Assembly: GCA_000004695.1 (NCBI GenBank)
Contig: CM000150.2
Coordinates: 160,001-224,000, forward strand
Reading direction: 5' to 3'
Source: Dictyostelium discoideum
Lineage: Eukaryota
Length of the DNA stretch: 64,000 nt
Below the pieces are notes generated by a model. That model was not told where the DNA came from. It made no database searches and saw nothing but the letters and a program-made list of their open reading frames with translations. Position numbers and translations under genes: made by a program. Of this stretch, positions 2,113 to 31,680 are shown piece after piece. Each line of letters begins with the position of its first letter. Position 1 is the stretch's first letter.

Positions 2113-2234
2113 AAGTTTTAAATTAATTTTTAAAATTTAAAAATAAATTTTATTATTAAAAAATAATATATCTGTGTATTTTATTGTTCACATAAAATTT
2201 TATTTCATACTATAGTTTTAAAATAATTTTTAAA

Positions 2235-2507
2235 TTTTTTTTATTTATTTTTGTAGCATTATAAATAAGGTGCTTTTAAATGTAATTATTAATAAACTTT
2301 AAAATTCAATTTTTAAGGAGCTTTAAAATGTAATTATTAATATAATTTTTAATCATATTTTTAAGTAATTTTAAAGAGCATTATAAAGTTAATTTTAAAG
2401 GGCATTTTAAAGGTAATTTTAAAGGTAATTTTAAAGGTCATTTTAAAGGTAATTTTCAAGGTCATTTTAAAGTTAATTTTAAAGGTAAGTTTAAAGGTGA
2501 TTTTAAA
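2235..2507. repeat. Subterminal repeat region of the CACTA-like DNA transposon (units of ggt[ag]atttt[ac]aagg). It was split by the Skipper array and continues at 31518.
   Basis: Tandem/inverted 13-14 bp units identical to those inside the MITE copies at 19575-20290. The sequence at 31518-31680 continues the same repeat phase and ends in the terminus ...CATCGCTGTG. Confidence 0.5.
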
Positions 2508-2897
2508 TGTAAAAGTCACTCACACTAATCTTCAATCCATTGTCACATTTGTTCAATCTTAAATCAAACAGTCCAATCTTTAAAGTAATGTATTTTAATA
2601 TGAAGGATAGAAAGAGTGAAAGACTAATATCATAAAAGTAAACATACATAAAAGAGATAATTAAAAGTAAGGGCGTTATGAAACTAAACCGAAAATCAGA
2701 ATTTTTATTATTTTTTTTAAATTTTAATTTAATTTAATTTTTTTTAATTTAATTTTTTATTTTTTTGACTGAAAAAATAAAAAATTAAAAAATAAAAATA
2801 AAAATTAAATGAAATATTTTTACATGGAGATGCGCGAATTTGTTACGTTGTTGAGCTCATACTAACTTTAAATTAATTTAGTTTTGAGTCTCTAACA
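2508..2897 (-). repeat. Skipper 3' LTR of copy 1 (390 bp).
   Basis: Read on the minus strand it runs TGTTAGAGAC ... TTTTACA, identical to 9115-9504. The polypurine tract AAAGAAGGAAGGGGAAGG lies immediately upstream (plus-strand 2898-2915). A TTAAA flank sits at 2503-2507. Confidence 0.8.
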
Positions 2898-2940
2898 CCT
2901 TCCCCTTCCTTCTTTAGGCTAGCTATGGCTCAGAGGTGGA

Positions 2941-5900
2941 CTATAAACTCTTGGGTGTAACTTTTCTTCCTGATCTAGTTGTTTTAATTTGTAAACTAAG
3001 ATCAAGTTCATCATCCTCACTTGAAGTATTTTGATTTCTTGATTTTCTTTTCTTTGATTGGTTTCTTTGATTTGAGATGGAGTTTTGTTGTCTTGGAGTA
3101 ATTGGTTGCAATGTTTGAGAACTTTGAACTTCTTGGGAGAGTGGAGGTGACACAATTGGCTCAACGGCTTCTGTAGTTACATTCTCTCTTTCTCTTCTTG
3201 AGTTCAATTGTTTCTTCTGCACGTTATTCCAATACTCTCTGACTAACTCTTCACAGTCTGTATCGACTTCTTTGATCCATTCAGGTTCTGGGTAACCTTT
3301 GAACTTCACTAGGTACATCTTTTTGACTTTATCGTGATTGAGAATACTTTCAACTTCGTAACTTGCTTCGTCCATCTCCTCAGGTTCGGGCATCGATATC
3401 TCTTCTCTTAACCACTCACTGTCCTCGTATAGTTTTACGATTTGATCCTTGTTGAACACATTGTGTTTCTTTGGATAACCTACTAAATCGAGTGTTACAT
3501 TATTACCATGAACGGCAGTGATTATGAATGGTCCACAATTCTTGGATTCAAGTTTGTGAGAGATTAGATCTTTTGAAAGATTAGTTTGGAAGAATTTTCT
3601 TTTAACCATCACCTTTTCTCCGACTACGAAGATAACATCACCACGACCTCGGTTGTAATACTTTTGAGCATTGATTTGAGCATCTAGTATATTATCACGG
3701 ACAATCTTTTTGATGTTGCTCATTGGTATACGAGTCTTTGTTAATGAATTGAAATGATTAACGGGAGTTGGTGGATTGAATCCATATACGATTTGGAATG
3801 GTGACATCTTTGTAGACTTGCTCATTGATGAGTTCATTGCAAATTCAATAAGTGGAATGATATCTGACCAATTCTCCCCATACTCTGTTGAGGCTTTAGT
3901 TAATATTCTAATAATTTCTCTATTCATTCTTTCAGTTTGACCATCAGCTTGTGCTCTGTGTGCCACAGTCATCTTGAGTTTAGAATCCATCGTCTTTGCC
4001 CATCTCTCCCATATTTCTGAAAGGAATCTTGGATCTCTATCGGAGACGATTGTTCTTGGATAACCATGGAGTCTGAACACATGATTCAACAATAATTGAG
4101 CAGTATGTTGGGCATCTATTGTCTTATGACATGGAACTATATGAACCATTTTAGATAATCTACAAACAATGACACAAACTTGATCGACTTCAACTGTAAA
4201 TCCGTTTATTGCATACATTGTTTTTGGTAGCGATAAGAAATCGATTGATATATCTCTCCAAACTTCAAAGGGAATTTCTAAACTTTGGAGTATACCATTA
4301 TCTTTACGGTTAATGTTCAATTGACATGTTGCACAAGACTTTATGTACCTCTTGATAATAGAAAACATTTCTTTGAAATAGTAATCTTGTCTTATATTAT
4401 TGTATGTGATATCTAAAGCGTGATGACCACTATATTTGGTATCGTGATATTCTCTAATGACGGTATGAATAGTTTCTTTATCTATGATGATTAATTTCTT
4501 GAACCCATCTTCACTAAGGTAACAGATATCATTAATTTCTTCAATGCATAAATTTGGATTCTTTTTCATCTCTAATAGCCATTGAGAATTGATTTGTTCT
4601 TCCTTAATTTTATTTAAAAACGATTCATCCCATTGGAAATTATCATATTTACGAGATAAGAAATCAGCTATACCATTCTTTTTACCACTTATATGTCTTA
4701 ATTCATAATCAAATTCTTTAATATATTTCATATAATTATCTTGTCTCTTTGTGAACGGTTTATCGTTTGACTTATTGATAATATATGTAAGATTTTGGTG
4801 ATCAGTGTAGATTGAAACCTTTTTACCAATTAATAAATGTTGAAACTTCTTTAGAGAATCAATGATTGAAAGGAACTCTCTATCACCTATGCTGTACCTC
4901 TTTTGAGTATCAGTAAGTTTTCTACTATGAAACCAAATGACTTTGAATTTATTACCTTGAATTTGATATAATACACCTGATAATGCTTTATCACTAACAT
5001 CACAATACAAGTGAAAACTACCATTGTTTAGATTATTATTATCTGAATGGATTGGCATGTCTGTTGATGCTTTAACCTTTTCGATATCTATTGGTATGGA
5101 GTTATCTTGTTCAATTGGAATAGCGACAATATTTTCACCTTCAAACTCTTTCTTTAGATTATTGAATTCTTTGAGTGATTCATCAGAAAGTGTTTTCTTG
5201 TTTTTTCCTTTTGATTCTTTGGAAAGGTGATAGGTTTTTTCAGCGTAATTTTCAATGTGTCTCCTGAAGAATCCAAAAAGACCTAATGCAGCTTCAGCTT
5301 CTTTGGCGTTTCTTGGTTCAGGTAACTCAGAGATAGCTCTAACCTTTGCAGCTCTTGGAGATATACCATCTTTATGAATGTGGAAACCAAGGAAATCTAC
5401 TTCAGTCTTTAACATTTCACTCTTTTCTCTTGAAATGAATAATAGGTACTTTCTACAATATAGAAGCATTCTAATGATTTCAATGAAATGTACCATGTAG
5501 TCGAGTTTTGAATGAACCAAAAGATCATCAAAGTATTGTAATAAACTTTTGATTTTTCCAAATATTTCGACCATCAATCTGGCGAATGTGGATGGAGAGT
5601 TGACTAAACCTTGTGGCATTCTAGTATATTCAAATTTACCAATATGTGTAATGAAAGCGGTGTACTTTGCGTGTTCTGGATTAATTAACACTTGGAAATA
5701 ACCCATAATCATGTCAAACTTTGAGAAAAGCTTTGAATCTTTACATTGATTTAAAAGACTATCAACCGGAGTGAATGGATGATCGTCTCTAACAGTGACT
5801 TTATTTAGTTGACGATAGTCGTGGACTACACGCCATGAATCTCTCTTCTTTAATAACATGATTGGAGATGAGTAATTTGATTCTGATCTTTTGATAATAC

Positions 5901-7221
5901 CTAAATCTATAAATTTGAGAACCATTTCTTCGACATGTCTCTTATGATCATCTGTTGAATAATAGATTTGTTTCTTTGTTGGTTCAACATCTTGATCTTT
6001 CTTTAATATGATATTATGTATGATATTACCTCTTCTGGAATTGTTAATCTGATCTGGAATATCAGGAAGTTTATCTACTATAACATCTTCGAATGAATCA
6101 TTAATGAAATCACGTACTGCTTGTATCTCTTCTTCTTCTGGATTAGTTTTAACCAGTATATCACAAAGTTGTGATGGGATGCTTTCAACAAACTTTGTAA
6201 CTTGTTCTTTGATATCTTCATCATCATCTAGTAGATTATGTGACTGTGACTGATTATCATTGGATACGGTAACATGTTTTCTTGGAGCTTTTACATTACA
6301 ATGTAATTGATTCGACTGTTGATAATTAATTTTGTATGTACTGTTATTCAACTTGATTATTTTATCTTTTTGGTTAATGATAGAGTCCTTAAGGATATCA
6401 TTACCGAAAAGTACATCAATGATATCCAATTCTATAATAAAGAAGTTATGAATTTCATTGTTAACTTGTATATTGATTTGTTCAACAAACTCTTCTTTGA
6501 CGTCTAGTAGCGGGAAGTTAATCTTGGCTTTCGTTTTGTGAACGTGGTTCTTCATATCTTTTGAAATCAACCTCTTATTGATTAAACTAACATTACTTCC
6601 AGTATCGAGAATTAATTTGAATTGTTTTTCTTTGGAATGAGAGTTAATTATAATCTTGGGTTTATCCATGTTTTCTCTGTTTGGAACGATTAAACATTTT
6701 AGAGTCGGAATGAGAGCAGTATCACTTGTACCAGTACTATGTAATAATGAGATGATTGGTTTGTTTGTTTCTTTATCGAATTTAATTGTGTAAAGCAATT
6801 CATCTTCTTCATCATTAATTAATTCTTTACTAGAATTTAATATCTTTGGACGATTGAATATGTTAACAGTATAGTTTTTATCTTGAACATTTGTTAACTC
6901 TGTTGGAGTATTAAATTCAATCTTCTGTGGTTTATACTTCATCTCTGATTCAACAGCTTTTGGAATTGGAACGGTTGTATCAGGAACTAGTTTTATACCA
7001 TATGAGTCTTTGACGTATTCTTTAAGTTTGTTGATGTTTTTATGAACATCATGTTGCTGGCTTTGTTGATGTAACTGTTTAACAATGTTTTGATTATAAA
7101 AAGAGTTAAGAGTATAAAGTGAATCTTTGTTCACTGGGTAATCATTATCCTCAAGGTGATGATATTGTGAAATTTTATAATTTTTATTTAAAATCTTTGA
7201 CTTGGACTCATCACCTTCATC
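2941..7221 (-). CDS. pol: Skipper pol polyprotein (protease DTG, RT YFDD, RNase H, integrase HHCC/DDE, C-terminal chromodomain), expressed by readthrough of the in-frame TGA at 7222-7224.
   Basis: 1397 aa ORF with motifs LILDTGSNVSLI, YFDDLLV, TDHQNL, HHALDITYNN...CATCQ, and the chromodomain YEVESILNHDKVKKMYLVKFKGYPEPEWIKE. It is in the same frame as gag (7134 and 8388 are both 0 mod 3), separated from it by a single TGA. Confidence 0.85.
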   Translation of the reverse strand, partial: DEGDESKSKILNKNYKISQYHHLEDNDYPVNKDSLYTLNSFYNQNIVKQLHQQSQQHDVHKNINKLKEYVKDSYGIKLVPDTTVPIPKAVESEMKYKPQKIEFNTPTELTNVQDKNYTVNIFNRPKILNSSKELINDEEDELLYTIKFDKETNKPIISLLHSTGTSDTALIPTLKCLIVPNRENMDKPKIIINSHSKEKQFKLILDTGSNVSLINKRLISKDMKNHVHKTKAKINFPLLDVKEEFVEQINIQVNNEIHNFFIIELDIIDVLFGNDILKDSIINQKDKIIKLNNSTYKINYQQSNQLHCNVKAPRKHVTVSNDNQSQSHNLLDDDEDIKEQVTKFVESIPSQLCDILVKTNPEEEEIQAVRDFINDSFEDVIVDKLPDIPDQINNSRRGNIIHNIILKKDQDVEPTKKQIYYSTDDHKRHVEEMVLKFIDLGIIKRSESNYSSPIMLLKKRDSWRVVHDYRQLNKVTVRDDHPFTPVDSLLNQCKDSKLFSKFDMIMGYFQVLINPEHAKYTAFITHIGKFEYTRMPQGLVNSPSTFARLMVEIFGKIKSLLQYFDDLLVHSKLDYMVHFIEIIRMLLYCRKYLLFISREKSEMLKTEVDFLGFHIHKDGISPRAAKVRAISELPEPRNAKEAEAALGLFGFFRRHIENYAEKTYHLSKESKGKNKKTLSDESLKEFNNLKKEFEGENIVAIPIEQDNSIPIDIEKVKASTDMPIHSDNNNLNNGSFHLYCDVSDKALSGVLYQIQGNKFKVIWFHSRKLTDTQKRYSIGDREFLSIIDSLKKFQHLLIGKKVSIYTDHQNLTYIINKSNDKPFTKRQDNYMKYIKEFDYELRHISGKKNGIADFLSRKYDNFQWDESFLNKIKEEQINSQWLLEMKKNPNLCIEEINDICYLSEDGFKKLIIIDKETIHTVIREYHDTKYSGHHALDITYNNIRQDYYFKEMFSIIKRYIKSCATCQLNINRKDNGILQSLEIPFEVWRDISIDFLSLPKTMYAINGFTVEVDQVCVIVCRLSKMVHIVPCHKTIDAQHTAQLLLNHVFRLHGYPRTIVSDRDPRFLSEIWERWAKTMDSKLKMTVAHRAQADGQTERMNREIIRILTKASTEYGENWSDIIPLIEFAMNSSMSKSTKMSPFQIVYGFNPPTPVNHFNSLTKTRIPMSNIKKIVRDNILDAQINAQKYYNRGRGDVIFVVGEKVMVKRKFFQTNLSKDLISHKLESKNCGPFIITAVHGNNVTLDLVGYPKKHNVFNKDQIVKLYEDSEWLREEISMPEPEEMDEASYEVESILNHDKVKKMYLVKFKGYPEPEWIKEVDTDCEELVREYWNNVQKKQLNSRRERENVTTEAVEPIVSPPLSQEVQSSQTLQPITPRQQNSISNQRNQSKKRKSRNQNTSSEDDELDLSLQIKTTRSGRKVTPKSL

Positions 7222-7224
7222 GAG

Positions 7225-8388
7225 TCATTGTTGCTTTTTGGCTGATGGACCTGGATTGGCTTTGGCATCGACCGGATCAATTCTACATGTAGATGTGGAG
7301 TGATTTGATTTACCACAATTGAGACAGTAGCCTTTGTTTTGACGGTAAACGATGAAACTGCTTCTTATCTTTTTGAGGTCTACCTTAGAGTCTTTTCTTA
7401 TTTCGGGTAATATTGCAGCTCTAATCTTATCAGCTTGAGCATCAAAGGAATTCCTGTTATGAGAGTTATGATTTGGAGTAGCATGATTCTTTTTTAATAG
7501 AAACTTCTCATCAGTATTCGATGCAGAATCGGAAGGTCTTCTTCTCGAGAACTTATCAGCATTGTTAAGAACCAACTCGGTGATGGCTTCACGACACTCG
7601 GTGATATCGGTTTGAGTGTTGAGTTTGATTGCAACATCAGTTTGTAACCAGTCTGGTACGACCATCTTTAACAAAGCAAGGATATTATTATCTAAAATTG
7701 ATCTTAGATACTCTAATTGAACTTCAGCAGTACCATGGATGAGATACACCGGATTAATTACATTGTGGTAACTCATAATGGCTTCGATGTTTTTTATAAC
7801 ATCTTGGGCTGAGTAGCAGTTACGATGGTTAATAGCTTCGACTACTTTAGTGTTGGCAGCTTCGTAGTCAGTTTTGAATGGAACCAAAGTCTTGGATCTA
7901 AAGTTACGGTGGATTAGCTTCTTTAATGTTTCACCTTCAATTTTATCGTTGTTCTTAACTGATTCATTGTGGGTAGGTTGAAGCAATTGAAATAATTCAT
8001 TTGATGCAGCACCATTGTCCATAATGGTCTTCAAGGTTGGTTCAACACCATTCTGGGAGCAGTGGATGGTAAAGAGATTCATGAAGATGACAGCAGTGGC
8101 AGCATTTTTTAAAGCGTCAATGGTTTTAGCTTCAATCGAATTGGTCTTTGATTTCTTTGGCACTTTCTCTCTGACTTCGACGTCGGATACATCAGTGCTT
8201 TCAGTTGAATAAATTTCATCATCAACTTCAGTGGGACGAAGAGTCTTTTTTGATTTTACTTGAACAGTAATAGCATCATCGGAGGCAGTTGTCACTTCAG
8301 CGGCACGTTTGGCGGTGGAAGACACTTTGGCTTTACGGATGGCTTTCTTTGAATGAGTAGTAGTTGATGACATGACTTTCACCAACAA
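7225..8388 (-). CDS. gag: Skipper gag (CCHC zinc knuckle).
   Basis: 387 aa ORF ending in CLNCGKSNHSTSTC (C-x2-C-x4-H-x4-C). It is repeated at 29222-30385 and partially at 13832-14493. Confidence 0.8.
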   Translation of the reverse strand: MLVKVMSSTTTHSKKAIRKAKVSSTAKRAAEVTTASDDAITVQVKSKKTLRPTEVDDEIYSTESTDVSDVEVREKVPKKSKTNSIEAKTIDALKNAATAVIFMNLFTIHCSQNGVEPTLKTIMDNGAASNELFQLLQPTHNESVKNNDKIEGETLKKLIHRNFRSKTLVPFKTDYEAANTKVVEAINHRNCYSAQDVIKNIEAIMSYHNVINPVYLIHGTAEVQLEYLRSILDNNILALLKMVVPDWLQTDVAIKLNTQTDITECREAITELVLNNADKFSRRRPSDSASNTDEKFLLKKNHATPNHNSHNRNSFDAQADKIRAAILPEIRKDSKVDLKKIRSSFIVYRQNKGYCLNCGKSNHSTSTCRIDPVDAKANPGPSAKKQQ

Positions 8389-9114
8389 TTATATATAAAA
8401 TTTATTAAATATAATTTAATTTTATAATTTAATTTTTTTATTTAATTTACATAATTTAATTATATAATTTAATTTAATTTATTTAATTTAATTTAATTTA
8501 ATTTTTAATTAAATAATTAAATATAAGTATTAATATATGTTAACTGTTATTCCACTAATATATTTTTATTGTGGTGTCTTTATATTATTTAATTGATAAT
8601 AAATATTATCTTAAATTATTTTAATTATAACAATGCATCAATATAACTGTTATTCCACTAATAATTTATATTGTGGTGTCTTTATTTAACTGTTATTCCA
8701 CTAATAATTTATATTGTGGTGTCTTTATTTAACTGTTATTCCACTAATAATTTATATTGTGGTGTCTTTGTTTAACTGTTATTCCACTAATAATTTATAT
8801 TGTGGTGTCTTTGTATTTGAGCATTATTATTAAATTAATTGATACAATCTTGTTTTATATTACTTTATAAAAGATGCATGTTTACAATGTGAGTAGGAAG
8901 TGTCGTTGTACCGCCTAAGCAGTACAGCGTTAATCTTGCAAACAGAAGGGCCATTGTAATGCATTTTTATTTTGTTTTAAATACTACTGTTATTCCTCTA
9001 ATCTGAAGAGTCGACTTCTTCATCATGAGGTGTCATTGTATACGAAATATAAGGATTGTATCTAATTATTTGTTTTAATGTATTTGTTTTATGTTAAAAT
9101 TAGAAAAAAAAAAG
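8389..9114 (-). repeat. Skipper 5' leader, including a 43-bp tandem repeat array (about 8640-8815, 4-5 units of aactgttattccactaataatttatattgtggtgtctttattt).
   Basis: Direct tandem units are seen in the sequence. The homologous leader in copy 3 (30645-30895) carries about 6 units. Confidence 0.7.
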
Positions 9115-9504
9115 TGTAAAAGTCACTCACACTAATCTTCAATCCATTGTCACATTTGTTCAATCTTTTATCAAACAGTCCAATCTTTAAAGTAATGTTT
9201 TTTAATATGAAGGATAGAAAGAGTGAAAGACTAATATCATAAAAGTAAACATACATAAAAGAGATAATTAAAAGTAAGGGCGTTATTCCAACTAAACCGA
9301 AAAATCAGAATTTTTATTATTTTTTTAAATTTTAATTTAATTTAATTTTTTTTAATTTAATTTTTTATTTTTTGACTGAAAAAATAAAAAATTAAAAAAT
9401 AAAAATAAAAATTAAATGAAATATTTTTACATGGAGATGCGCGAATTTGTTACGTTGTTGAGCTCATACTAACTTTAAATTAATTTAGTTTTGAGTCTCT
9501 AACA
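9115..9504 (-). repeat. Skipper LTR shared between copy 2 (as its 3' LTR) and copy 1 (as its 5' LTR).
   Basis: Identical to 2508-2897. A PPT at 9505-9522 is followed by the pol stop of copy 2. Confidence 0.8.
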
Positions 9505-9547
9505 CCTTCCCCTTCCTTCTTTAGGCTAGCTATGGCTCAGAGGTGGA

Positions 9548-12500
9548 CTATAAACTCTTGGGTGTAACTTTTCTTCCTGATCTAGTTGTTTTAATTTGTA
9601 AACTAAGATCAAGTTCATCATCATCACTTGAAGTATTTTGATTTCTTGATTTTCTTTTCTTTGATTGGTTTCTTTGATTTGAGATGGAGTTTTGTTGTCT
9701 TGGAGTAATTGGTTGCAATGTTTGAGAACTTTGAACTTCTTGGGAGAGTGGAGGTGACACAATTGGCTCAACGGCTTCTGTAGTTACATTCTCTCTTTCT
9801 CTTCTTGAGTTCAATTGTTTCTTCTGCACGTTATTCCAATACTCTCTGACTAACTCTTCACAGTCTGTATCGACTTCTTTGATCCATTCAGGTTCTGGGT
9901 AACCTTTGAACTTCACTAGGTACATCTTTTTGACTTTATCGTGATTGAGAATACTTTCAACTTCGTAACTTGCTTCGTCCATCTCCTCAGGTTCCGGCAT
10001 CGATATCTCTTCTCTTAACCACTCACTGTCCTCGTATAGTTTTACGATTTGATCTTTGTTGAACACATTGTGTTTCTTTGGATAACCTACTAAATCGAGT
10101 GTTACATTATTACCATGAACGGCAGTGATTATGAATGGTCCACAATTCTTGGATTCAAGTTTGTGAGAGATTAGATCTTTTGAAAGATTAGTTTGGAAGA
10201 ATTTTCTTTTAACCATCACCTTTTCTCCGACTACGAAGATAACATCACCACGACCTCGGTTGTAATACTTTTGAGCATTGATTTGAGCATCTAGTATATT
10301 ATCACGGACAATCTTTTTGATGTTGCTCATTGGTATACGAGTCTTTGTTAATGAATTGAAATGATTAACGGGAGTTGGTGGATTGAATCCATAAACGATT
10401 TGGAATGGTGACATCTTTGTAGACTTGCTCATTGATGAGTTCATTGCAAATTCAATAAGTGGAATGATATCTGACCAATTCTCCCCATACTCTGTTGAGG
10501 CTTTAGTTAATATTCTAATAATTTCTCTATTCATTCTTTCAGTTTGACCATCAGCTTGTGCTCTGTGTGCCACAGTCATCTTGAGTTTAGAATCCATCGT
10601 CTTTGCCCATCTCTCCCATATTTCTGAAAGGAATCTTGGATCTCTATCGGAGACGATTGTTCTTGGATAACCATGGAGTCTGAACACATGATTCAACAAT
10701 AATTGAGCGGTATGTTGGGCATCTATTGTCTTATGACATGGAACTATATGAACCATTTTAGATAATCTACAAACAATGACACAAACTTGATCGACTTCAA
10801 CTGTAAATCCGTTTATTGCATACATTGTTTTTGGTAGCGATAAGAAATCGATTGATATATCTCTCCAAACTTCAAAGGGAATTTCTAAACTTTGGAGTAT
10901 ACCATTATCTTTACGGTTAATGTTCAATTGACATGTTGCACAAGACTTTATGTACCTCTTGATAATAGAAAACATTTCTTTGAAATAGTAATCTTGTCTT
11001 ATATTATTGTATGTGATATCTAAAGCGTGATGACCACTATATTTGGTATCGTGATATTCTCTAATGACGGTATGAATAGTTTCTTTATCTATGATGATTA
11101 ATTTCTTGAACCCATCTTCACTAAGGTAACAGATATCATTAATTTCTTCAATGCATAAATTTGGATTCTTTTTCATCTCTAATAGCCATTGAGAATTGAT
11201 TTGTTCTTCCTTAATTTTATTTAAAAACGATTCATCCCATTGGAAATTATCATATTTACGAGATAAAAAATCAGCTATACCATTCTTTTTACCACTTATA
11301 TGTCTTAATTCATAATCAAATTCTTTAATATATTTCATATAATTATCTTGTCTCTTTGTGAACGGTTTATCGTTTGACTTATTGATAATATATGTAAGAT
11401 TTTGGTGATCAGTGTAGATTGAAACCTTTTTACCAATTAATAAATGTTGAAACTTCTTTAGAGAATCAATGATTGAAAGGAACTCTCTATCACCTATGCT
11501 GTACCTCTTTTGAGTATCAGTAAGTTTTCTACTGTGAAACCAAATGACTTTGAATTTATTACCTTGAATTTGATATAATACACCTGATAATGCTTTATCA
11601 CTAACATCACAATACAAGTGAAAACTACCATTGTTTAGATTATTATTATCTGAATGGATTGGCATGTCTGTTGATGCTTTAACCTTTTCGATATCTATTG
11701 GTATGGAGTTATCTTGTTCAATTGGAATAGCGACAATATTTTCACCTTCAAACTCTTTCTTTAGATTATTGAATTCTTTGAGTGATTCATCAGAAAGTGT
11801 TTTCTTGTTTTTTCCTTTTGATTCTTTGGAAAGGTGATAGGTTTTTTCAGCGTAATTTTCAATGTGTCTCCTGAAGAATCCAAAAAGACCTAATGCAGCT
11901 TCAGCTTCTTTGGCGTTTCTTGGTTCAGGTAACTCAGAGATAGCTCTAACCTTTGCAGCTCTTGGAGATATACCATCTTTATGAATGTGGAAACCAAGGA
12001 AATCTACTTCAGTCTTTAACATTTCACTCTTTTCTCTTGAAATGAATAATAGGTACTTTCTACAATATAGAAGCATTCTAATTATTTCAATGAAATGTAC
12101 CATGTAGTCGAGTTTTGAATGAACCAAAAGATCATCAAAGTATTGTAATAAACTTTTGATTTTTCCAAATATTTCGACCATCAATCTGGCGAATGTGGAT
12201 GGAGAGTTGACTAAACCTTGTGGCATTCTAGTATATTCAAATTTACCAATATGTGTAATGAAAGCGGTGTACTTTGCGTGTTCTGGATTAATTAACACTT
12301 GGAAATAACCCATAATCATGTCAAACTTTGAGAAAAGCTTTGAATCTTTACATTGATTTAAAAGACTATCAACCGGAGTGAATGGATGATCGTCTCTAAC
12401 AGTGACTTTATTTAGTTGACGATAGTCGTGGACTACACACCATGAATCTCTCTTCTTTAATAACATGATTGGAGATGAGTAATTTGATTCTGATCTTTTG

Positions 12501-13828: not shown

Positions 13829-13831
13829 GAG

Positions 13832-21897: not shown

Positions 21898-22569
21898 GAA
21901 TCCATACACAGCGAAGAAAAAACCACCTTAAAAGCAAATTTAATCTAAAAAAAAAACAAAAAAAGTATTATTTTAGATTTCTTCAACTTCATCAATAATA
22001 TCAATGCTTTCAAAACCAATCACCAGTTCTTTTAAAATAAATTGATACTACAATTAAATAATAGCTGGTAAGTTAATATAATTTTTTTTTAAAAAAAAAA
22101 AAAATTAAAAAAAAAAAAAAAATAAATAATAATAATAAAATAAAATAGATAGACTAATTTGAAAAATAATAATTATATTTTAGGTTACCTTTCTTATTAT
22201 ACCAACAACCACTTCTTTTCAATCAAATTGATACTTCACTTATATAATAACTGGTAAGTCAATATAATTTTTTTTTTTTAAAAAAAAAATAATAATATAA
22301 AATAAAGAGATTAATATAATTTAAACAATTATATTTTAGGTTGTTTCTTCTTTTATTAGAACCTGTAAAGTAAATGCTTTTGGTACAAATTATAATGGAA
22401 ATAAAGTTCTGCTTTTCAAATTAGTCAATTATAAATGTTGTATTACCATTAAATAAAAAAAATTTCTGATTTCAAATACTTTTACTTTTTAATTAATTCT
22501 TTTTTTTTTTTTTTTTTTTTTAAATTTATTTTAAATTATTATTATAAAATGTTATTTTTAATTTTTATT

Positions 22570-22870
22570 TTTAAGTATTCTTATTAAGTGAACTTTATAA
22601 TTACCCTTAATAATTACCCTTATTAATTATAATTAATAATTCCACTTAATAGTTATACTTAATAATTATACTTAATAATTTTAATTATTAATTATATTTT
22701 ATTATTATACTTAATAATTATGCTTAATAAATATACTTTTTAATTATACTTAATAAATATACTTAATAAATATACTTTTTAATTATACTTATTAATTATA
22801 CTTAATAAATATACTTAATAATTATACTTAATAATTATACTTAATAAATATACTTATTAAGTATACTTAA
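22570..22870. repeat. AT-rich minisatellite with units of about 13-15 bp (tatacttaataa[at]tat).
   Basis: Direct tandem repetition seen in the sequence. Confidence 0.7.
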
Positions 22871-22904
22871 TAATAGTACTATTTACGTTCCTACTTTAAA
22901 GATG

Positions 22905-24155
22905 CTTTTAAGTATTTTTTTTCGCCCCTGTGGAGATTAACACCCTCATTTAGGGGATGTCTTGACCAGAACACAGGTTATCCCCTTATTTTTTCTTTTA
23001 ATTCAATGGAGGAATGTCATGCCATGTAAACCTTTTGATTTTGGTAACAGGACAAAACGCACTGCAGCGGTCGATAAAGCCAAGCGAGTTGCTAATCCAA
23101 TTCGTCGTACTCAGTTACTGAAGAAGATTCGTTAATGACTGATCGGAAAGTCAGCATCGCTAGAATGGTAGATTGTCGTTGAGATGCAGGGCGTAAAGCC
23201 CAGCTATTGGCAAAGATGTAAGCGGCTTAAGAGCCCCTAATTAGTATCCGCGGTCACGGCCGCACATCCTAGCCTATGGGCTCACACCAATGCGTAATAT
23301 GGTAGCAAAAATCATGTCAGATGAAGACATCCCAGATCATGATACCCGTACATGGTATTGTCTCCAGTATCCAATAACCTCAATCTGCCATCAAACCAAA
23401 TTATAATATTTAAAAAAAAAAATTTGAATCTCAAAAATCATTTTCTAGATCTGAAAAAACCCACTTAAATTATTATTAAATTACTATTTTTTTTAATAAT
23501 TTAGTAAATAGATATTTTAAGTCATAAATTAAGCGATAAAATCTATTTTTTTGGTTAACCAGCATAGTCTAGGTGTTTATCTATTTAATATGTTTTTTGT
23601 GGATAATAAAGCATATTTCAATCACTAATGATATTTATTAAATTTATTAAATTTGTTTATTTTTTTTTTCCGTGATGGAAAATGGTAAGACCATTAGTTC
23701 GTTCTGCATTGCCCATTACATCACCACTTCTTACATGTCAGCGTCTGGTGAAGTTACGCTGGGTGATGCAGCCGATAAAGAGACACAGTTCGCTATTAAC
23801 TCGACTGGATCGATTAATATGTAAGCGCCACGTTTTGTTCTGAAGGGTATTCGGGATGAGAGAACACCTGTTTTTGAATGCTCATGAATTATCCAGCATA
23901 GTATGTGGAATTCTATAGACCCTATTACCAGAAATACGACCACGGAAGATCTTGGTTCGCAACGCGTTTGCTGAAGTGGTTCACACACAACTATCCAACA
24001 GCGGTGATTGATGTGGTTAAGTCCGTGGCCCTGGTTCTTGTTAAACATCGCGATTTGATTGGTAACCCATCATTCATTGACACAGAGTGGTTTTTGGATG
24101 GTGAGTGTTTGCGTCATCTTAATAACGCACTGGTCATGGAAAACGAACCGGTTTA
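22905..24155. other. Second GC-rich bacterial or phage-like segment (with a short AT-rich stretch at about 23400-23680), ending exactly at the outer terminus of the DIRS-1 copy C ITR.
   Basis: About 47% GC with enterobacterial-style codons. A small ORF at 23027..23143 (+) reads MPCKPFDFGNRTKRTAAVDKAKRVANPIRRTQLLKKIR, and ORF 23905..24189 (+) reads ...ATRLLKWFTHNYPTAVIDVVKSVALVLVKHRDLIGNPSFIDTEWFLDGECLRHLNNALVMENEPVY. I cannot name the protein family. Confidence 0.5.
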
Positions 24156-24607
24156 TTTATATTATCATATATATATATATATATTATGAATAACATTTAT
24201 TTATTTGAATTTCCCAAATATTTAAGATAATTTTTTAGAATGTTCTAGAACATTCGAAGAATAAAAAAAATTTTCCAAAGAAAAGTAAAAATTTCGACCC
24301 GGCACAATGATGCGATAATTGTGCAAGGTCGAAAAACTGAAAAATTCGGAACCGACACTATGTACAAAGTTGTGAAGGGTCGAAAACTCTTATTTTTTTG
24401 AGTTTTGCGAAATTTTTAAGAAAATAAAAACGTATAAATAGTGGCACTAAAAACTAAAACAATTTGATTTATTTTATTTGGGAATTCCTCCTATATATAT
24501 TTAAGATACACACACACACAAATTTTATACAAATATTTATTTCTCTTTATTAATTTTTTATATTATTATTTTTCTCATATTATAATTTTAGATATCAACA
24601 ATAAAAT
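24156..24607 (+). repeat. DIRS-1 left ITR (copy C).
   Basis: Matches the other two ITR copies, with the ORF ATG at 24608. Confidence 0.8.
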
Positions 24608-26469
24608 ATGTCTACCACTGTTAATAATAATGATGCCTCTAGTAGTAGTGCCTCTGCCTCTAATAGCGCTGAATCCTTTGATTTAAGAATAAAATCAATG
24701 GAGGATCAAATCAACAACCTTTCTTTAGCCTTTACAAGATTCATGAAAGAACCTATTTTCTCATCTAATTCCAATTCACGTAGCCAACCTTCTCATGATA
24801 ACTCTGACACCGAGAATGAACAAAGTGAAGATGAATCAAGTAACAATGTCGATGTTCCAACCGATTATCAATTATCCGATACCTTACTTGGTCAGTACAA
24901 ACATATGGTAAACAATCAAGGTTTACTCGTCGAAGGAATCAAGAATCTACCATCAATGGTCAAACAAGGTTATTACATGGTAAAACTCGATATCAAGAAA
25001 GCCTACCTCCACGTTTTAGTAGATCCGCAATACAGAGACTTATTCCGCTTCGTGTGGAAAGGTTCGCACTACCGTTGGAAAACAATGCCGTTGGGGTTAT
25101 CGACAGCTCATGGTATCTTTACAATGTTGTTAAGACCTGTACTTGGAATGTTGAGAGATATCAACGTATCCGTCATCGCTTACTTGGACGATCTATTAAT
25201 CGTCGGTTCAACAAAAGAAGAATGTTTATCCAACCTCAAAAAGACGATGGACTTACTTATCAAACTAGGTTTCAAGTTAAATCTAGAAAAGAGTGTTCTC
25301 GAACCAACTCAATCAATTACGTTTCTCGGATTACAAATCGATTCAAAATCAATGAAGCTTCTTGTTCCCAAAGAAAAGAAGAAAAGTGTCATCAAGGAAA
25401 TAAGAAACTTTTTAAAACTAGATTGTTGCTCCCCAAGAAAGCTTGCTGGTTTAAAAGGAAAGCTAATTGCACTGAAAGATGCAGTTATCCCATTCAGACT
25501 TTACACTCGTAGAACAAACAAGTTTCACTCTCAGTGTCTGACTCTAGCCAATGGAGATTGGGATCAATCATTCCCCATTCCTCAAGAGGTCAAGTCAGAG
25601 ATTTCACATTGGTTAACAGTTCTAAACCAATGGAATGGAAAAGAAATCAGTCTGTTTCCAAGTTACGACTATGTTCTTACAACCGATGCCTCGGAATCAG
25701 GTGCAGGTGCCACTCTCAAGAAAGGAAACAAGGTAATCAAAACTTGGTCATTCCAGTGGTCAACAACTCAATCAAACATGTCGTCAAATCGTCGAGAAAT
25801 GCTCGCGCTGCTAATGGCCTATCAAGCGCTATGTCAGAAACTGAACAACTGCAAGCTGAAGATTCAAACCGACAACACTACCACTCTCTCTTACATCAAT
25901 CGCCAGGGTGGTCAGATACAGGATCTCTCAGTTCTGTTCGAACAACTTTGGAAACAATGCCTCAAGAAGAAAGTGAACTTGATTGGAGAGCATATTCCAG
26001 GATTCTTCAATGTAAAAGCCGACCACCTCAGTCGTCTTTCAGAGATGAATCACAAATCATCGTCCAGAGTAATCAAGAGTTACAACTGGCAACTGAAGAA
26101 GGAAGTGTTCAATCGCATCCAACTTCAATTCGGTCAAATACAGATGGATCTGTTCGCATCTCACTTCAACCATCAAACGAACAACTACTCAACAATCAGA
26201 ATGAATGCACTCCACCTCGATTGGAGTCAATGGAAGCAATGTCTGGCCTTTCCACCACCCATTCTTTTGCCTTCTATCCTGGAGAAGATGAACTCATCCA
26301 GTTCGAAGAAGGTTTCTATAATACTGATCTTCCCAATCTGGAGATCAGCAACTTGGTATCCGATGATTCAAGCTCAAGTTCCTCGTCATCATCGTCACAT
26401 GTTTCCTCAAGTACTGGGAACATTCCAAGAAGTATTGACCAAACAATCAGTAGAGTCGATACCAATCCA
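24608..26469 (+). CDS. DIRS-1 ORF with an in-frame internal deletion that fuses the ORF1 N-terminus (about 105 aa) to RT (YLDD), RNase H (TDAS...E...D) and downstream domains. It runs into the assembly gap.
   Basis: 620 aa are readable: MSTTVNNN...HMVNNQGLLVE|GIKNLPSMVKQGYY...IAYLDDLLIVG...VLTTDASESGAGA...IQTDNTTTLSYINRQGG...ADHLSR. Copy B carries another 45 aa of ORF1 after LLVE. Confidence 0.75.
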
Positions 26470-26569
26470 NNNNNNNNNNNNNNNNNNNNNNNNNNNNNNN
26501 NNNNNNNNNNNNNNNNNNNNNNNNNNNNNNNNNNNNNNNNNNNNNNNNNNNNNNNNNNNNNNNNNNNNN
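26470..26569. other. Assembly gap (100 N).
   Basis: N run between DIRS-1 copy C (+) and Skipper pol copy 3 (-). Confidence 0.99.
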
Positions 26570-29218
26570 TAATAGCCATTGAGAATTGATTTGTTCTTCC
26601 TTAATTTTATTTAAAAACGATTCATCCCATTGGAAATTATCATATTTACGAGATAAGAAATCAGCTATACCATTCTTTTTACCACTTATATGTCTTAATT
26701 CATAATCAAATTCTTTAATATATTTCATATAATTATCTTGTCTCTTTGTGAACGGTTTATCGTTTGACTTATTGATAATATATGTAAGATTTTGGTGATC
26801 AGTGTAGATTGAAACCTTTTTACCAATTAATAAATGTTGAAACTTCTTTAGAGAATCAATGATTGAAAGGAACTCTCTATCACCTATGCTGTACCTCTTT
26901 TGAGTATCAGTAAGTTTTCTACTATGAAACCAAATGACTTTGAATTTATTACCTTGAATTTGATATAATACACCTGATAATGCTTTATCACTAACATCAC
27001 AATACAAGTGAAAACTACCATTGTTTAGATTATTATTATCTGAATGGATTGGCATGTCTGTTGATGCTTTAACCTTTTCGATATCTATTGGTATGGAGTT
27101 ATCTTGTTCAATTGGAATAGCGACAATATTTTCACCTTCAAACTCTTTCTTTAGATTATTGAATTCTTTGAGTGATTCATCAGAAAGTGTTTTCTTGTTT
27201 TTTCCTTTTGATTCTTTGGAAAGGTGATAGGTTTTTTCAGCGTAATTTTCAATGTGTCTCCTGAAGAATCCAAAAAGACCTAATGCAGCTTCAGCTTCTT
27301 TGGCGTTTCTTGGTTCAGGTAACTCAGAGATAGCTCTAACCTTTGCAGCTCTTGGAGATATACCATCTTTATGAATGTGGAAACCAAGGAAATCTACTTC
27401 AGTCTTTAACATTTCACTCTTTTCTCTTGAAATGAATAATAGGTACTTTCTACAATATAGAAGCATTCTAATGATTTCAATGAAATGTACCATGTAGTCG
27501 AGTTTTGAATGAACCAAAAGATCATCAAAGTATTGTAATAAACTTTTGATTTTTCCAAATATTTCGACCATCAATCTGGCGAATGTGGATGGAGAGTTGA
27601 CTAAACCTTGTGGCATTCTAGTATATTCAAATTTACCAATATGTGTAATGAAAGCGGTGTACTTTGCGTGTTCTGGATTAATTAACACTTGGAAATAACC
27701 CATAATCATGTCAAACTTTGAGAAAAGCTTTGAATCTTTACATTGATTTAAAAGACTATCAACCGGAGTGAATGGATGATCGTCTCTAACAGTGACTTTA
27801 TTTAGTTGACGATAGTCGTGGACTACACGCCATGAATCTCTCTTCTTTAATAACATGATTGGAGATGAGTAATTTGATTCTGATCTTTTGATAATACCTA
27901 AATCTATAAATTTGAGAACCATTTCTTCGACATGTCTCTTATGATCATCTGTTGAATAATAGATTTGTTTCTTTGTTGGTTCAACATCTTGATCTTTCTT
28001 TAATATGATATTATGTATGATATTACCTCTTCTGGAATTGTTAATCTGATCTGGAATATCAGGAAGTTTATCTACTATAACATCTTCGAATGAATCATTA
28101 ATGAAATCACGTACTGCTTGTATCTCTTCTTCTTCTGGATTAGTTTTAACCAGTATATCACAAAGTTGTGATGGGATGCTTTCAACAAACTTTGTAACTT
28201 GTTCTTTGATATCTTCATCATCATCTAGTAGATTATGTGACTGTGACTGATTATCATTGGATACGGTAACATGTTTTCTTGGAGCTTTTACATTACAATG
28301 TAATTGATTCGACTGTTGATAATTAATTTTGTATGTACTGTTATTCAACTTGATTATTTTATCTTTTTGGTTAATGATAGAGTCCTTAAGGATATCATTA
28401 CCGAAAAGTACATCAATGATATCCAATTCTATAATAAAGAAGTTATGAATTTCATTGTTAACTTGTATATTGATTTGTTCAACAAACTCTTCTTTGACGT
28501 CTAGTAGCGGGAAGTTAATCTTGGCTTTCGTTTTGTGAACGTGGTTCTTCATATCTTTTGAAATCAACCTCTTATTGATTAAACTAACATTACTTCCAGT
28601 ATCGAGAATTAATTTGAATTGTTTTTCTTTGGAATGAGAGTTAATTATAATCTTGGGTTTATCCATGTTTTCTCTGTTTGGAACGATTAAACATTTGAGA
28701 GTCGGAATGAGAGCAGTATCACTTGTACCAGTACTATGTAATAATGAGATGATTGGTTTGTTTGTTTCTTTATCGAATTTAATTGTGTAAAGCAATTCAT
28801 CTTCTTCATCGTTAATTAATTCTTTACTAGAATTCAATATCTTTGGACGATTGAATATGTTTACAGTATAGTTTTTATCTTGAACATTTGTTAACTCTGT
28901 TGGAGTATTAAATTCAATCTTCTGTGGTTTATACTTCATCTCTGATTCAACAGCTTTTGGAATTGGAACGGTTGTATCAGGAACTAGTTTTATACCATAT
29001 GAGTCTTTGACGTATTCTTTAAGTTTGTTGATGTTTTTATGAACATCATGTTGCTGGCTTTGTTGATGTAACTGTTTAACAATGTTTTGATTATAAAAAG
29101 AGTTAAGAGTATAAAGTGAATCTTTGTTCACTGGGTAATCATTATCCTCAAGGTGATGATATTGTGAAATTTTATAATTTTTATTTAAAATCTTTGACTT
29201 GGACTCATCACCTTCATC
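26570..29218 (-). CDS. pol: Skipper pol, copy 3, 3'-truncated at the assembly gap (PR-RT-RH and part of IN are present).
   Basis: The first 860 aa are identical to copy 1. Confidence 0.8.
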
Positions 29219-29221
29219 GAG

Positions 29222-30385
29222 TCATTGTTGCTTTTTGGCTGATGGACCTGGATTGGCTTTGGCATCGACCGGATCAATTCTACATGTAGATGTGGAGTGA
29301 TTTGATTTACCACAATTGAGACAGTAGCCTTTGCTCTGACGGTAAACGATGAAACTGCTTCTTATCTTTTTGAGGTCTACCTTAGAGTCTTTTCTTATTT
29401 CAGGTAATATTGCAGCTCTAATCTTATCAGCTTGTGCATCAAAGGAATTCCTGTTATGAGAGTTATGATTTGGAGTAGCATGATTCTTTTTTAATGGAAA
29501 CTTCTCATCATTATTCGATGCGGAATCGGAAGGTCTTCTTCTCGAGAACTTATCAGCATTGTTAAGAACCAACTCGGTGATGGCTTCACGACACTCGGTG
29601 ATATCGGTTTGAGTGTTGAGTTTGATTGCAACATCAGTTTGTAACCAGTCTGGTACGACCATCTTTAACAAAGCAAGGATATTATTATCTAAAATTGATC
29701 TTAGATACTCTAATTGAACTTCAGCAGTACCATGGATTAGATACACCGGATTAATTACATTGTGGTAACTCATAATGGCTTCGATGTTTTTTATAACATC
29801 TTGGGCTGAGTAGCAGTTACGATGGTTAATAGCTTCGACTACTTTAGTGTTGGCAGCTTCGTAGTCAGTTTTGAATGGAACCAAAGTCTTGGATCTAAAG
29901 TTACGGTGTATTAGCTTCTTCAATGTTTCACCTTCAATTTTATCGTTGTTCTTAACTGATTCATTGTGGGTAGGTTGAAGCAATTGAAATAATTCATTTG
30001 ATGCAGCACCATTGTCCATAATGGTCTTCAAGGTTGGTTCAACACCATTCTGGGAGCAGTGGATGGTAAAGAGATTCATGAAGATGACAGCAGTGGCAGC
30101 ATTTTTTAAAGCGTCAATGGTTTTAGCTTCAATGGAATTGGTCTTTGATTTCTTTGGCACTTTCTCTCTGACTTCGACGTCGGATACATCAGTGCTTTCA
30201 GTTGAATAAATTTCATCATCGACTTCAGTGGGACGAAGAGTCTTTTTTGATTTTACTTGAACAGTAATAGCATCATCGGAGGCGGTTGTCACTTCAGTGG
30301 CACGTTTGGCGGTGGAAGACACTTTGGCTTTACGGATGGCTTTCTTTGAAGGAGTAGTAGTTGATGACATGACTTTCACCAACAA
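29222..30385 (-). CDS. gag: Skipper gag, copy 3.
   Basis: 387 aa, about 98% identical to copy 1, with CCHC present. Confidence 0.8.
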   Translation of the reverse strand: MLVKVMSSTTTPSKKAIRKAKVSSTAKRATEVTTASDDAITVQVKSKKTLRPTEVDDEIYSTESTDVSDVEVREKVPKKSKTNSIEAKTIDALKNAATAVIFMNLFTIHCSQNGVEPTLKTIMDNGAASNELFQLLQPTHNESVKNNDKIEGETLKKLIHRNFRSKTLVPFKTDYEAANTKVVEAINHRNCYSAQDVIKNIEAIMSYHNVINPVYLIHGTAEVQLEYLRSILDNNILALLKMVVPDWLQTDVAIKLNTQTDITECREAITELVLNNADKFSRRRPSDSASNNDEKFPLKKNHATPNHNSHNRNSFDAQADKIRAAILPEIRKDSKVDLKKIRSSFIVYRQSKGYCLNCGKSNHSTSTCRIDPVDAKANPGPSAKKQQ

Positions 30386-31197
30386 TTATATATAAAATTT
30401 ATTAAATATAATTTAATTTTATAATTTAATTTTATAATTTAAATTATATAATTTAATTATATAATTTAATTTAATTTATTTAATTTAATTTAATTTAATT
30501 TTTAATTGAATAATTAAATATAAGTATTAATATATGTTAACTGTTATTCCACTAATATATTTTTTTTGTGGTGTCTTTATATTATTTAATTGATAATAAA
30601 TATTATCTTAAATTATTTTAATTATAACAATGGCATCAATATAACTGTTATTCCACTAATAATTTATATTGTGGTGTCTTTATTTAACTGTTATTCCACT
30701 AATAATTTATATTGTGGTGTCTTTGTTTAACTGTTATTCCACTAATAATTTATATTGTGGTGTCTTTGTTTAACTGTTATTCCACTAATAATTTATATTG
30801 TGGTGTCTTTGTTTAACTGTTATTCCACTAATAATTTATATTGTGGTGTCTTTGTTTAACTGTTATTCCACTAATAATTTATATTGTGGTGTCTTTGTAT
30901 TTGAGCATTATTATTAAATTAATTGATACAATCTTGTTTTATATTACTTTATAAAAGATGCATGTTTACAATGTGAGTAGGAAGTGTCGTTGTACCGCCT
31001 AAGCAGTACAGCGTTAATCTTGCAAACAGAAGGGCCATTGTAATGCATTTTTATTTTGTTTTAAATACTACTGTTATTCCTCTAATCTGAAGAGTCGACT
31101 TCTTCATCATGAGGTGTCATTGTATACGAAATATAAGGATTGTATCTAATTATTTGTTTTAATGTATTTGTTTTATGTTAAAATTAGAAAAAAAAAG
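30386..31197 (-). repeat. Skipper 5' leader of copy 3, with about 6 units of the 43-bp tandem repeat (30645-30895).
   Basis: Collinear with 8389-9114 but with more repeat units. Confidence 0.7.
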
Positions 31198-31517
31198 TGT
31201 AAAAGTCACTCACACTAATCTTCAATCCATTGTCACATTTGTTCAATCTTAAATCAAACAGTCCAATATAAAAGAGATAATTAAAAGTAAGGGCGTTATG
31301 AAACTAANCCGAAAATCAGAATTTTTATTATTTTTTTTAAATTTTAATTTAATTTAATTTTTTTTAATTTAATTTTTTATTTTTTTGACTGAAAAAATAA
31401 AAAATTAAAAAATAAAAATAAAAATTAAATGAAATATTTTTACATGGAGATGCGCGAATTTGTTACGTTGTTGAGCTCATACTAACTTTAAATTAATTTA
31501 GTTTTGAGTCTCTAACA
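31198..31517 (-). repeat. Skipper 5' LTR of copy 3 (320 bp; internal deletion of about 70 bp; one N at 31308).
   Basis: Termini TGTAAAAG...CTCTAACA, followed directly by TTAAA and then CACTA-like subterminal repeats (no PPT), so this is the outer 5' end of the array. Confidence 0.75.
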
Positions 31518-31680
31518 TTAAAGGTGGTTTTAAAGGTGATTTTAAAGGTGATTTTAAAGGTCATTTAAAAAATTGCTTTTAAATTAATTTTTAAGTGACT
31601 TTTTTATAGGACTTTAAATCCACTTTTAATTTAATTTAAAGTTGCTTTAAAGGTGTAATTTTCATCGCTGTGTATTAATA
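31518..31680. repeat. Right-hand subterminal repeats and terminus (...GTGTAATTTTCATCGCTGTG) of the CACTA-like element. The 5-bp TTAAA at 31518-31522 duplicates the one at 2503-2507.
   Basis: The repeat phase continues from 2507 across the Skipper array. The terminus resembles the MITE termini. Confidence 0.55.

Follow-up and report, generated by a model that had tools for sequence, protein, structure and literature searches.

An apparent 29-kb Skipper tandem array and DIRS nest in a Dictyostelium discoideum assembly is probably a misassembled single Skipper insertion

Skipper sequence and its target site

The window analysed here, a stretch of 64,000 nucleotides, carries three Skipper long terminal repeats (LTRs), all on the minus strand and with TG...CA ends. 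LTR1 (2508-2897, 390 bp) is the 3' LTR of the local element, type P, and LTR3 (31198-31517, 320 bp, with one N at 31308) is its 5' LTR; the middle, 'shared' LTR2 (9115-9504, 390 bp) is of another type, Q. LTR3 is identical to LTR1 apart from a 70-bp internal deletion, which is also present in an independent chromosome-scale assembly used for comparison (GCA_054883475.1, hereafter the second assembly). The left LTR is adjoined from 2898 by a polypurine tract (in reverse complement ...aaagaaggaaggggaagg/TGTTAGAG, with the slash at the LTR boundary) and the right LTR by a polypyrimidine tract (in reverse complement TTTTACA/cttttttttttctaa), which identifies the left as a 3' LTR and the right as a 5' LTR. 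Every Skipper copy examined has both TTTTACA/cttttttttttctaa and gaaggaaggggaagg/TGTTAGAG. The sequence from 2508 to 9504 measures 6,997 bp in the window and contains a pol ORF (2941-7134, minus strand) and a gag ORF (7225-8373, minus strand). Matches to reverse transcriptase (RT), RNase H, integrase and chromodomain were found in pol: the Pfam families RVT_1, RT_RNaseH, Integrase_H2C2 and rve, and a weak Chromo match (E=0.0012, under the curated cut-off). The gag translation has a CX2CX4HX4C motif at its end. The positions given for the three LTRs in a preliminary description of this DNA are all right, and its view that the elements lie on the minus strand, with a 3' LTR leftmost and a 5' LTR rightmost, agrees with the ORF strand and with both tracts. 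An ARAGORN scan of the window found no tRNA genes.

The outer LTRs are flanked by TTAAA at 2503-2507 and again at 31518-31522. To the left, positions 2261-2507 belong to a multicopy repeat element, are built of its 12-bp repeats (ggtNattttaaa) and end in TTAAA; to the right, positions 31518-31672 begin with TTAAA and continue into the repeat element, ending ...CATCGCTGTG at 31672. Rejoining the flanks with a single TTAAA gives 554 bp that align over their full length with an uninterrupted paralogue of 555 bp in locus L008 of the second assembly, at 95.5% identity and with one gap column, so that taking out one TTAAA copy gives back the length of the paralogue. A chance match was considered as the source of the TTAAA pair, since this motif recurs with roughly every 12-bp unit where the repeat is clean (18 occurrences in 318 bp); it is rejected because the target-site duplication (TSD) is confirmed directly, both by a locus with a single copy and by the empty site in the paralogue. 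Among the Skipper loci compared, the 5-bp TSD is TTAAA here and at locus L010 of the second assembly, and TTGTT, GACAG and TTTAC at its loci L003, L001 and L008, respectively. Within the window the same TSD is found only at the two outer ends and not at LTR2, as a single element likewise predicts. Together, the outer LTRs and the TTAAA duplication support one Skipper integration into the 12-bp-repeat element. Three earlier proposals are thereby upheld, namely that TTAAA lies on both outer flanks, that the flanks rejoin into an uninterrupted repeat, and that a single Skipper integration took place, the second assembly holding exactly one Skipper with the same flanks and the same TSD.

Assembly gaps and a mosaic of two Skipper types

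Two runs of 100 N (14494-14593 and 26470-26569) split the region into three contigs. Both lie exactly at transitions between Skipper sequence and a DIRS-rich middle block: what had been called copy 2 extends to the first gap, copy 3 begins at the second, and neither junction of Skipper with the middle block is sequenced. With gaps at both block boundaries, the 29 kb amount to three scaffolded contigs. The left contig is free of gaps throughout 2508-14493. The two gaps go unmentioned in the preliminary description. The middle contig (14594-26469), which is placed by scaffolding only, contains degenerate, putative DIRS-1 fragments in both orientations, several of them inverted, that are 93-96% identical to one another. 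At 19540-21237 it includes copies of the 12-bp-repeat element, and at 22473-22914 a tandem array of 13-bp units. Pfam matches to RT, RNase H and Dam methyltransferase lie at 24608-26469 on the plus strand, and a further RT match at 17498-17983 on the minus strand. Self-BLAST, which also served to delineate the DIRS-1 fragments, found no Skipper sequence in this contig. Exact-protein look-ups in the second assembly did not place the left end of the window or the middle contig; the ORFs that returned no exact match there are 224-1024, 35959-36984, 21191-21649, 17498-17983, 18462-18929 and 44173-46383.

In self-BLAST the three Skipper copies are 99.4-99.6% identical, and the sites at which they differ are distributed as in a mosaic. 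The internal region from 2898, where the polypurine tract begins, to 6006 covers most of pol on the minus strand and is of type P, differing at 11 sites from the L003 type. It is followed by a switch zone (6007-6699, minus strand) in which P and Q are identical and no variant sites occur; P markers lie to its left and Q markers to its right. The remainder of copy 1 (6700-9114, minus strand: end of pol, gag and leader) is of type Q. Set against the local element, which L010 and copy 3 both represent, it shows substitutions at more than 25 sites and is without 86 bp (2 x 43 bp) that both of those have; in the second assembly it is no part of this locus. Between LTR2 and either outer LTR there are 5 substitutions and 4 indels. 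Copy 2 (9505-14493, minus strand) is the 3' part of a Q-type element, repeats the Q sequence of 6007-7886 and ends at the contig end. Copy 3 (26570-31197, minus strand) is the internal region of P again, with the 5' part of pol, gag and a leader of four 43-bp repeats. Copy 1 agrees with copy 3 against copy 2 at 6 sites in 4573-6006 and with copy 2 against copy 3 at 12 sites in 6700-7886, and is never the odd one out in the three-copy comparison. The same Q segment is thus present twice (12614-14493 and 6007-7886, 0 differences), as is the same P segment (26570-28696 and 4573-6699, 0 differences over 2,127 bp). A two-copy tandem, with copies 2 and 3 as parts of one element, was considered and is ruled out by 18 differing sites over their 3,314-bp overlap. 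In the text of the assembly copies 1 and 2 do share one LTR (9115-9504), as the preliminary description had noted, and there is neither a TSD nor flanking sequence around LTR2.

The syntenic locus in the second assembly, L010 (CM142508.1, positions 1-17115), consists of the right flank, one Skipper of 7,016 bp and the left flank, with identical junctions and the same TTAAA duplication; neither the tandem nor the DIRS block is present at this locus of GCA_054883475.1. L010 agrees with copy 1 at every variant site over 2508-6006 (0 differences) and with the sequence of copy 3 and its LTR (26570-31517) over all 4,948 bp (0 differences). When window positions 1242-6300 are merged with 28298-33138, the product is L010 without a single difference inside the element, and with 2 substitutions and 3 indels in the flanks: joined, the left part of copy 1 and copy 3 amount to exactly the one element that the second assembly has. 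The other type also has a counterpart. L003, a solo Skipper with its own TSD at an unrelated locus, agrees with copy 2 at every variant site and with copy 1 over 6700-9504, LTR2 included. No differences from L003 were found over the 3,498 bp of 6007-9504 or between LTR2 and the 5' LTR of L003, and the identity over the 5,379 bp of 9115-14493 is 100.0%. Neither 6007-9504 nor copy 2, with LTR2 (9115-14493), comes from the local element.

The two assemblies represent nearly the same genotype, with 0 substitutions outside poly-A/T runs in unique sequence at about 37.3-42.8 kb of the window. The window carries at 33139-35526 a poly-A retrotransposon of 2.39 kb, flanked by a 16-bp TSD, that is cleanly absent in L010; this indicates that the second assembly comes from another lineage than the window; its strain is probably AX2-214 (PMC12745789). 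Given this difference in lineage, sequence by itself leaves room for a strain-specific rearrangement. The second assembly has trouble near this locus too, with a contig end 1.27 kb to the left of Skipper (equivalent to window position 1242).

Origin of the apparent tandem array

Since two gaps split the region and an independent assembly contains a single element, we consider the 29-kb tandem array and DIRS nest to be an assembly artefact, with a probability of about 85%, and the real feature to be one Skipper insertion. With the same confidence we take the genuine element to be one young Skipper-1 of full length, about 7.0 kb, that lies on the minus strand between the two copies of a 5-bp duplication, TTAAA. 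The apparent tandem amplification would most likely be a Sanger-era misassembly. We infer the behaviour of the assembler from its product, as follows. The left contig, up to 14493, would start in the true local element P and, within the identical stretch 6007-6699, move to reads of another Skipper copy, Q. On reaching the 5' LTR of Q, the assembler would overlap it with the identical 3' LTR of Q and wrap into the 3' end of that element, creating the false internal-LTR-internal junction at 9115-9504 before the contig ends. LTR2 is likely the point of this wrap-around, where the 5' LTR and the 3' LTR of a single element were taken to overlap; because no unique junction has to be crossed, overlapping 5' and 3' LTR reads are enough for an assembler to produce an internal-LTR-internal join. 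The right contig, from 26570, would run through the genuine 5' part of P into the right flank. Although the left and right contigs overlap by 2.1 kb without a difference, their merging would have been missed, and an orphan DIRS-rich contig scaffolded between them with 100-N gaps on either side. The window's own strain, by this reasoning, presumably has a single copy as well. In the D. discoideum shotgun data, automated assemblers gave ambiguous positions to repeat reads, repeats of more than 5 kb were especially hampered, and the libraries were of short inserts only (PMC2665215). The same study did not find in the centromeres the tandem units expected of unequal crossover (Glockner & Heidel 2009, PMC2665215).

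The reading proposed earlier, in which the founder integration expanded in situ by unequal recombination or tandem amplification so that all three copies derive from it and the LTR-sharing array holds the DIRS nest, accounts for the TTAAA duplication and the identical LTRs at the outer ends, for the LTR-internal-LTR-internal order and for the 99.4-99.6% identity of the copies. It is contradicted by the pattern of P and Q markers, and we regard it as hardly credible. LTR2, which should be a recombinant of the founder LTRs, is instead identical to the LTR of a copy elsewhere, and Q-type sequence, 100% identical to L003, makes up copy 2 as well as the right part of copy 1. A trimer produced by unequal exchange should have a chimeric middle copy, whereas here the left copy is chimeric. 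In the comparison of the two assemblies, the second has one copy. Near-identity of the internal regions, proposed as a check of tandem amplification, does not discriminate: dispersed copies are equally similar, and copy 2 has a 100% identical counterpart at another locus.

A real, lineage-specific rearrangement would instead have P recombine with a Q-type Skipper by ectopic recombination, by break-induced replication with template switches or through multimers of Q cDNA, the hybrid tandem carrying or later receiving the DIRS-rich block, and the second assembly would then retain the ancestral single-copy state. Recombination of cDNA yields LTR-sharing multimers of Ty1 in yeast, which offers a precedent; at least one genuine transposon insertion differs between the assemblies, consistent with separate lineages, and the left contig runs without gaps through 2508-14493. 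We nevertheless consider this history unlikely, and likewise think it improbable that the window's strain truly carries a hybrid tandem of the local Skipper and the sequence or cDNA of a dispersed copy, joined by a template switch at the LTR. If it did, Skipper arrays would have a recent means of growth, specific to a laboratory lineage, that dispenses with insertion by integrase. Several ad hoc steps would be required, and both junctions that would prove it fall in N gaps. The crossover points are not those that a single crossover with a Q monomer or dimer would leave on integration: copy 2 is Q-type past the switch point of copy 1 and copy 3 is P-type to the left of it; homologous integration of Q as a circular monomer or as a dimer was set aside after its predicted switch points failed to match. 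Old DIRS fragments (93-96% identical) would also have to enter a Skipper that is 100% identical between lineages whose genotypes are otherwise almost identical.

It is highly improbable that the window is correct and that the second, long-read assembly collapsed a real nest across the 2.1 kb of identical P sequence. The end of its contig lies 1.27 kb from the element, and an identical overlap of 2,127 bp could allow such a jump, but with long reads and a haploid genome the loss of about 22 kb across a 2.1-kb repeat is unlikely. For the probable source assembly, structural validation with CRAQ is reported by its authors (PMC12745789), and the identity of the extra Skipper sequence to L003 would be left unexplained.

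If the tandem were real, it would be the first documented recombinational growth of Skipper arrays in Dictyostelium. On the preferred reading of one misassembled Skipper, the main value of the analysis lies in flagging a probable error in this assembly. Skipper would be over-represented by about 8.5 kb in this stretch and a DIRS-rich contig would sit inside a Skipper element without sequence support, so that one could be misled in counting Skipper copies, 'intact' elements or DIRS outside centromeres. Target-site studies could also make use of the genuine element, a young Skipper-1 whose 5-bp TSD is clear and for which a paralogous empty site exists.

Comparison with known systems

Tandem arrays that share LTRs are known from Ty1 multimers in yeast and from plant and Drosophila LTR elements of the tandem or 'complex' kind. 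The text of the window is alike in its diagnostic LTR-internal-LTR-internal order and in having no TSD at the middle LTR. It is unlike them in that the arrangement is absent from an independent assembly and the 'second' copy equals an element at another locus. Repeat-induced misassembly of Sanger data, under limits such as those described in PMC2665215, takes the form of chimeric contigs, LTR wrap-around and orphan repeat contigs that ambiguous mate pairs have placed. With it the region has in common contig ends inside repeats of more than 5 kb, 100-N gaps at repeat boundaries, identical overlaps left unmerged and a mosaic of two real copies, the assembler's behaviour being read from the product. 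[quoted passage not shown]

Dd-Skipper-1 is a Ty3/gypsy chromovirus with a consensus of 6,998 bp and 390-bp LTRs (Spaller et al. 2016, PMC5006619). The element described here is alike in length (6,997-7,016 bp) and in its 390-bp LTRs, and has the same two ORFs, gag and pol, the latter with RT, RNase H, integrase and, at its C terminus, a chromodomain. Both also have a polypyrimidine tract, and not a primer binding site, beside the 5' LTR, as well as a 5-bp TSD and a setting among other transposons. The local copy differs in the 70-bp deletion of its 5' LTR and in having four 43-bp leader repeats instead of two; nothing essential differs. Both its gag and pol ORFs are open, and the genuine local element is a young and apparently intact Skipper-1.

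Skipper copies and assembly gaps

With a G+C content of 27%, the window is AT-rich; it contains Dictyostelium transposons. Self-comparison resolved one LTR retrotransposon in three stretches, all on the minus strand: copy 1 (2508-9504, 6,997 bp), a complete element with 390-bp LTRs at 2508-2897 and 9115-9504; copy 2 (9115-14493), which starts with the LTR at 9115-9504; and copy 3 (26570-31517), with a terminal 320-bp LTR at 31198-31517. The gag ORF has 382 aa and a CX2CX4HX4C motif, and the pol ORF (~1,400 aa) includes RT, RNase H, and integrase zinc and core domains, with a weak chromodomain match. A polypurine tract adjoins 2897 and a polypyrimidine tract adjoins 31198, and therefore the leftmost LTR is a 3' LTR and the rightmost a 5' LTR, as the preliminary description had stated for minus-strand elements.

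That description is accurate at the letter level but overlooked two runs of exactly 100 N each (14494-14593 and 26470-26569). The first run terminates copy 2, and copy 3 begins immediately behind the second. Self-comparison detected no Skipper sequence in the intervening block (14594-26469). Its DIRS-like fragments are degenerate, lie in both orientations and carry RT, RNase H and Dam-methyltransferase domains; alongside them are copies of an element with 12-bp repeats and a 13-bp tandem array. Both junctions between Skipper and this block lie unsequenced in the N gaps. The supposed 29-kb nest therefore consists of three contigs that scaffolding has joined.

Two sources for three copies

A look-up of the copy 3 gag protein returned one place in a second assembly, GCA_054883475.1: the first 17,115 bp of CM142508.1 (locus L010), syntenic with the window. 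L010 matches window positions 42831-37033, 36993-35527 and 33138-26570, and then runs straight on through 8814-1242. There, a single Skipper of 7,016 bp sits between the right and left flanks, and its junctions and TTAAA match those of the window; L010 has neither a tandem nor a DIRS block. When the left and right contigs of the window are merged where they overlap (1242-6300 plus 28298-33138), the product equals L010 throughout the element with 0 differences, and departs from it in the flanks by only 2 substitutions and 3 indels.

The same look-up with the copy 1 gag protein gave three other loci of that assembly, among them L003, a solo full-length Skipper surrounded by unrelated genes and flanked by its own duplication, TTGTT. 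Window 9115-14493 matches L003 at 100.0% identity over 5,379 bp, and window 6007-9504, which includes the LTR that copies 1 and 2 were described as sharing, shows 0 differences from it in 3,498 bp.

Over the 3,314 bp common to all three copies, copy 1 agrees with copy 3 against copy 2 at 6 sites (4660-6006) and with copy 2 against copy 3 at 12 sites (6700-7741); at no site does copy 1 alone differ. Across all variant sites, L010 equals copy 1 over 2508-6006 and copy 3 throughout, whereas L003 equals copy 2 throughout and copy 1 over 6700-9504. Thus two real elements, one local (P) and one distant (Q), account for all three copies. A P segment (4573-6699) recurs at 26570-28696 and a Q segment (6007-7886) at 12614-14493, each with 0 differences. 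Unequal exchange within one founder would be expected to leave a middle LTR identical to those of the founder, together with a middle copy that is chimeric, and neither was found: apart from 70 bp deleted from the right one, the outer LTRs are identical, whereas 5 substitutions and 4 indels separate the middle LTR from both.

Both assemblies carry the 70-bp deletion in the 5' LTR of P. With part of that LTR missing, transcription of the element, whose ORFs are open, might be affected. The Skipper leader carries 43-bp tandem repeats whose unit number varies among copies (8601-8943 versus 30642-31027), and the leader of P exceeds the Q type by 86 bp, or two units.

Target site and neighbouring elements

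TTAAA lies at 2503-2507 and 31518-31522. Both flanks are made up of 12-bp repeats (ggtNattttaaa), with TTAAA occurring in roughly every unit (18 times in 318 bp), so the match by itself is weak evidence of a target-site duplication. The duplication is real nonetheless. Rejoined with one TTAAA removed, the flanks (554 bp) align end to end with an uninterrupted paralogue at locus L008 (555 bp) at 95.5% identity, with one gap column and an equal number of repeat units, and other Skipper copies of the second assembly each have a matching 5-bp duplication (TTGTT, GACAG, TTTAC). Together with the identical junctions in L010, this supports the earlier claim of one integration.

Just outside the target, 1165-2267 and 31673-32764 form 1.1-kb inverted repeats of 95% identity. 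Before insertion these arms would have been ~0.4 kb apart, with the 12-bp repeats between them, in a large palindrome-like structure. The contig of the second assembly begins within the left arm, at the equivalent of 1242.

A 2.39-kb poly-A-tailed retrotransposon (33139-35526) carries a 444-aa ORF, which recurs in identical form in at least 7 other places, and contains an internal direct repeat of 221 bp (33485-33705 and 35215-35435). A 16-bp duplication, TATCCCCATTTTTTTG, borders the element, which is cleanly missing from L010 (~7242-7257) and therefore represents an insertion polymorphism between closely related lineages. No tRNA genes were found in the whole window, an unusual setting if this were a tRNA-targeted TRE-type element.

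A multicopy element of ~760 bp with 12-bp subterminal repeats occurs at 32764-33138 plus 35527-35919, 19583-20285 and 20636-21191, and elsewhere at L001 (8264-9025 and 15909-16668) and L008 (20169-20923). One L001 copy lies within a Skipper 5' LTR, the outer duplication of that Skipper, GACAG, being intact; the L008 copy breaks the arm sequence at window-equivalent 2104-2106. A related host repeat ends in ...CATCGCTGTG (window 31672, and L008). The element looks like a small non-autonomous DNA transposon targeting other repeats. At L002 in the second assembly, a 5.6-kb insertion (12671-18232) splits the pol of another Skipper at the equivalent of 12311/12312; with its 13-bp tandem array and sequence ~80-94% related to window 21192-22932 in the middle contig, it adds another transposon family to those nested in Skipper.

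Assembly artefact or rearrangement

The single element in L010, the P/Q mosaic and the identity of copy 2 and the middle LTR with L003 speak against expansion as an LTR-sharing tandem array. The array is most likely an assembly artefact (probability roughly 0.85). The left contig would be a chimera that begins in P, switches to Q reads within a 693-bp stretch identical in P and Q, and runs into the 5' LTR of Q. Because the two LTRs of Q are the same, it could then resume out of the 3' LTR into the 3' end of Q a second time; such an internal-LTR-internal join has no unique junction and can therefore be created by overlapping LTR reads. The right contig contains the genuine 5' part of P, and the DIRS-rich contig was placed between the two, presumably via ambiguous mate pairs.

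A real rearrangement specific to the window's lineage is possible. The second assembly comes from a separate lineage, as the poly-A element polymorphism indicates; its contig stops only 1.27 kb left of Skipper, and exact-protein look-ups did not find the middle contig in GCA_054883475.1, which is probably the Nanopore and Illumina AX2-214 assembly of Holland et al. 2025 (PMC12745789). The genotypes are otherwise almost the same, with no substitutions outside poly-A/T runs in unique sequence at ~37.3-42.8 kb. Substitutions and 10-19-bp indels between the window and the second assembly cluster at 36760-37272, the rest of the flank being identical; poor sequence quality or a small repeat may be the cause. 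Such a rearrangement would, however, need several unsupported steps, its key junctions all fall in N gaps, and the P/Q switch points do not agree with simple homologous integration of Q.

The artefact reading agrees with what has been published on the limitations of the D. discoideum shotgun assembly: repeat reads were assigned ambiguous positions, assembly suffered most at repeats of >5 kb, and the libraries were all short-insert; the same study found no centromeric tandem units such as unequal crossover would be expected to leave (PMC2665215). The genuine feature is an ordinary, young Skipper-1 insertion, agreeing with the published Dd-Skipper-1 in size, in the length of its LTRs and in having a polypyrimidine tract next to the 5' LTR (PMC5006619).
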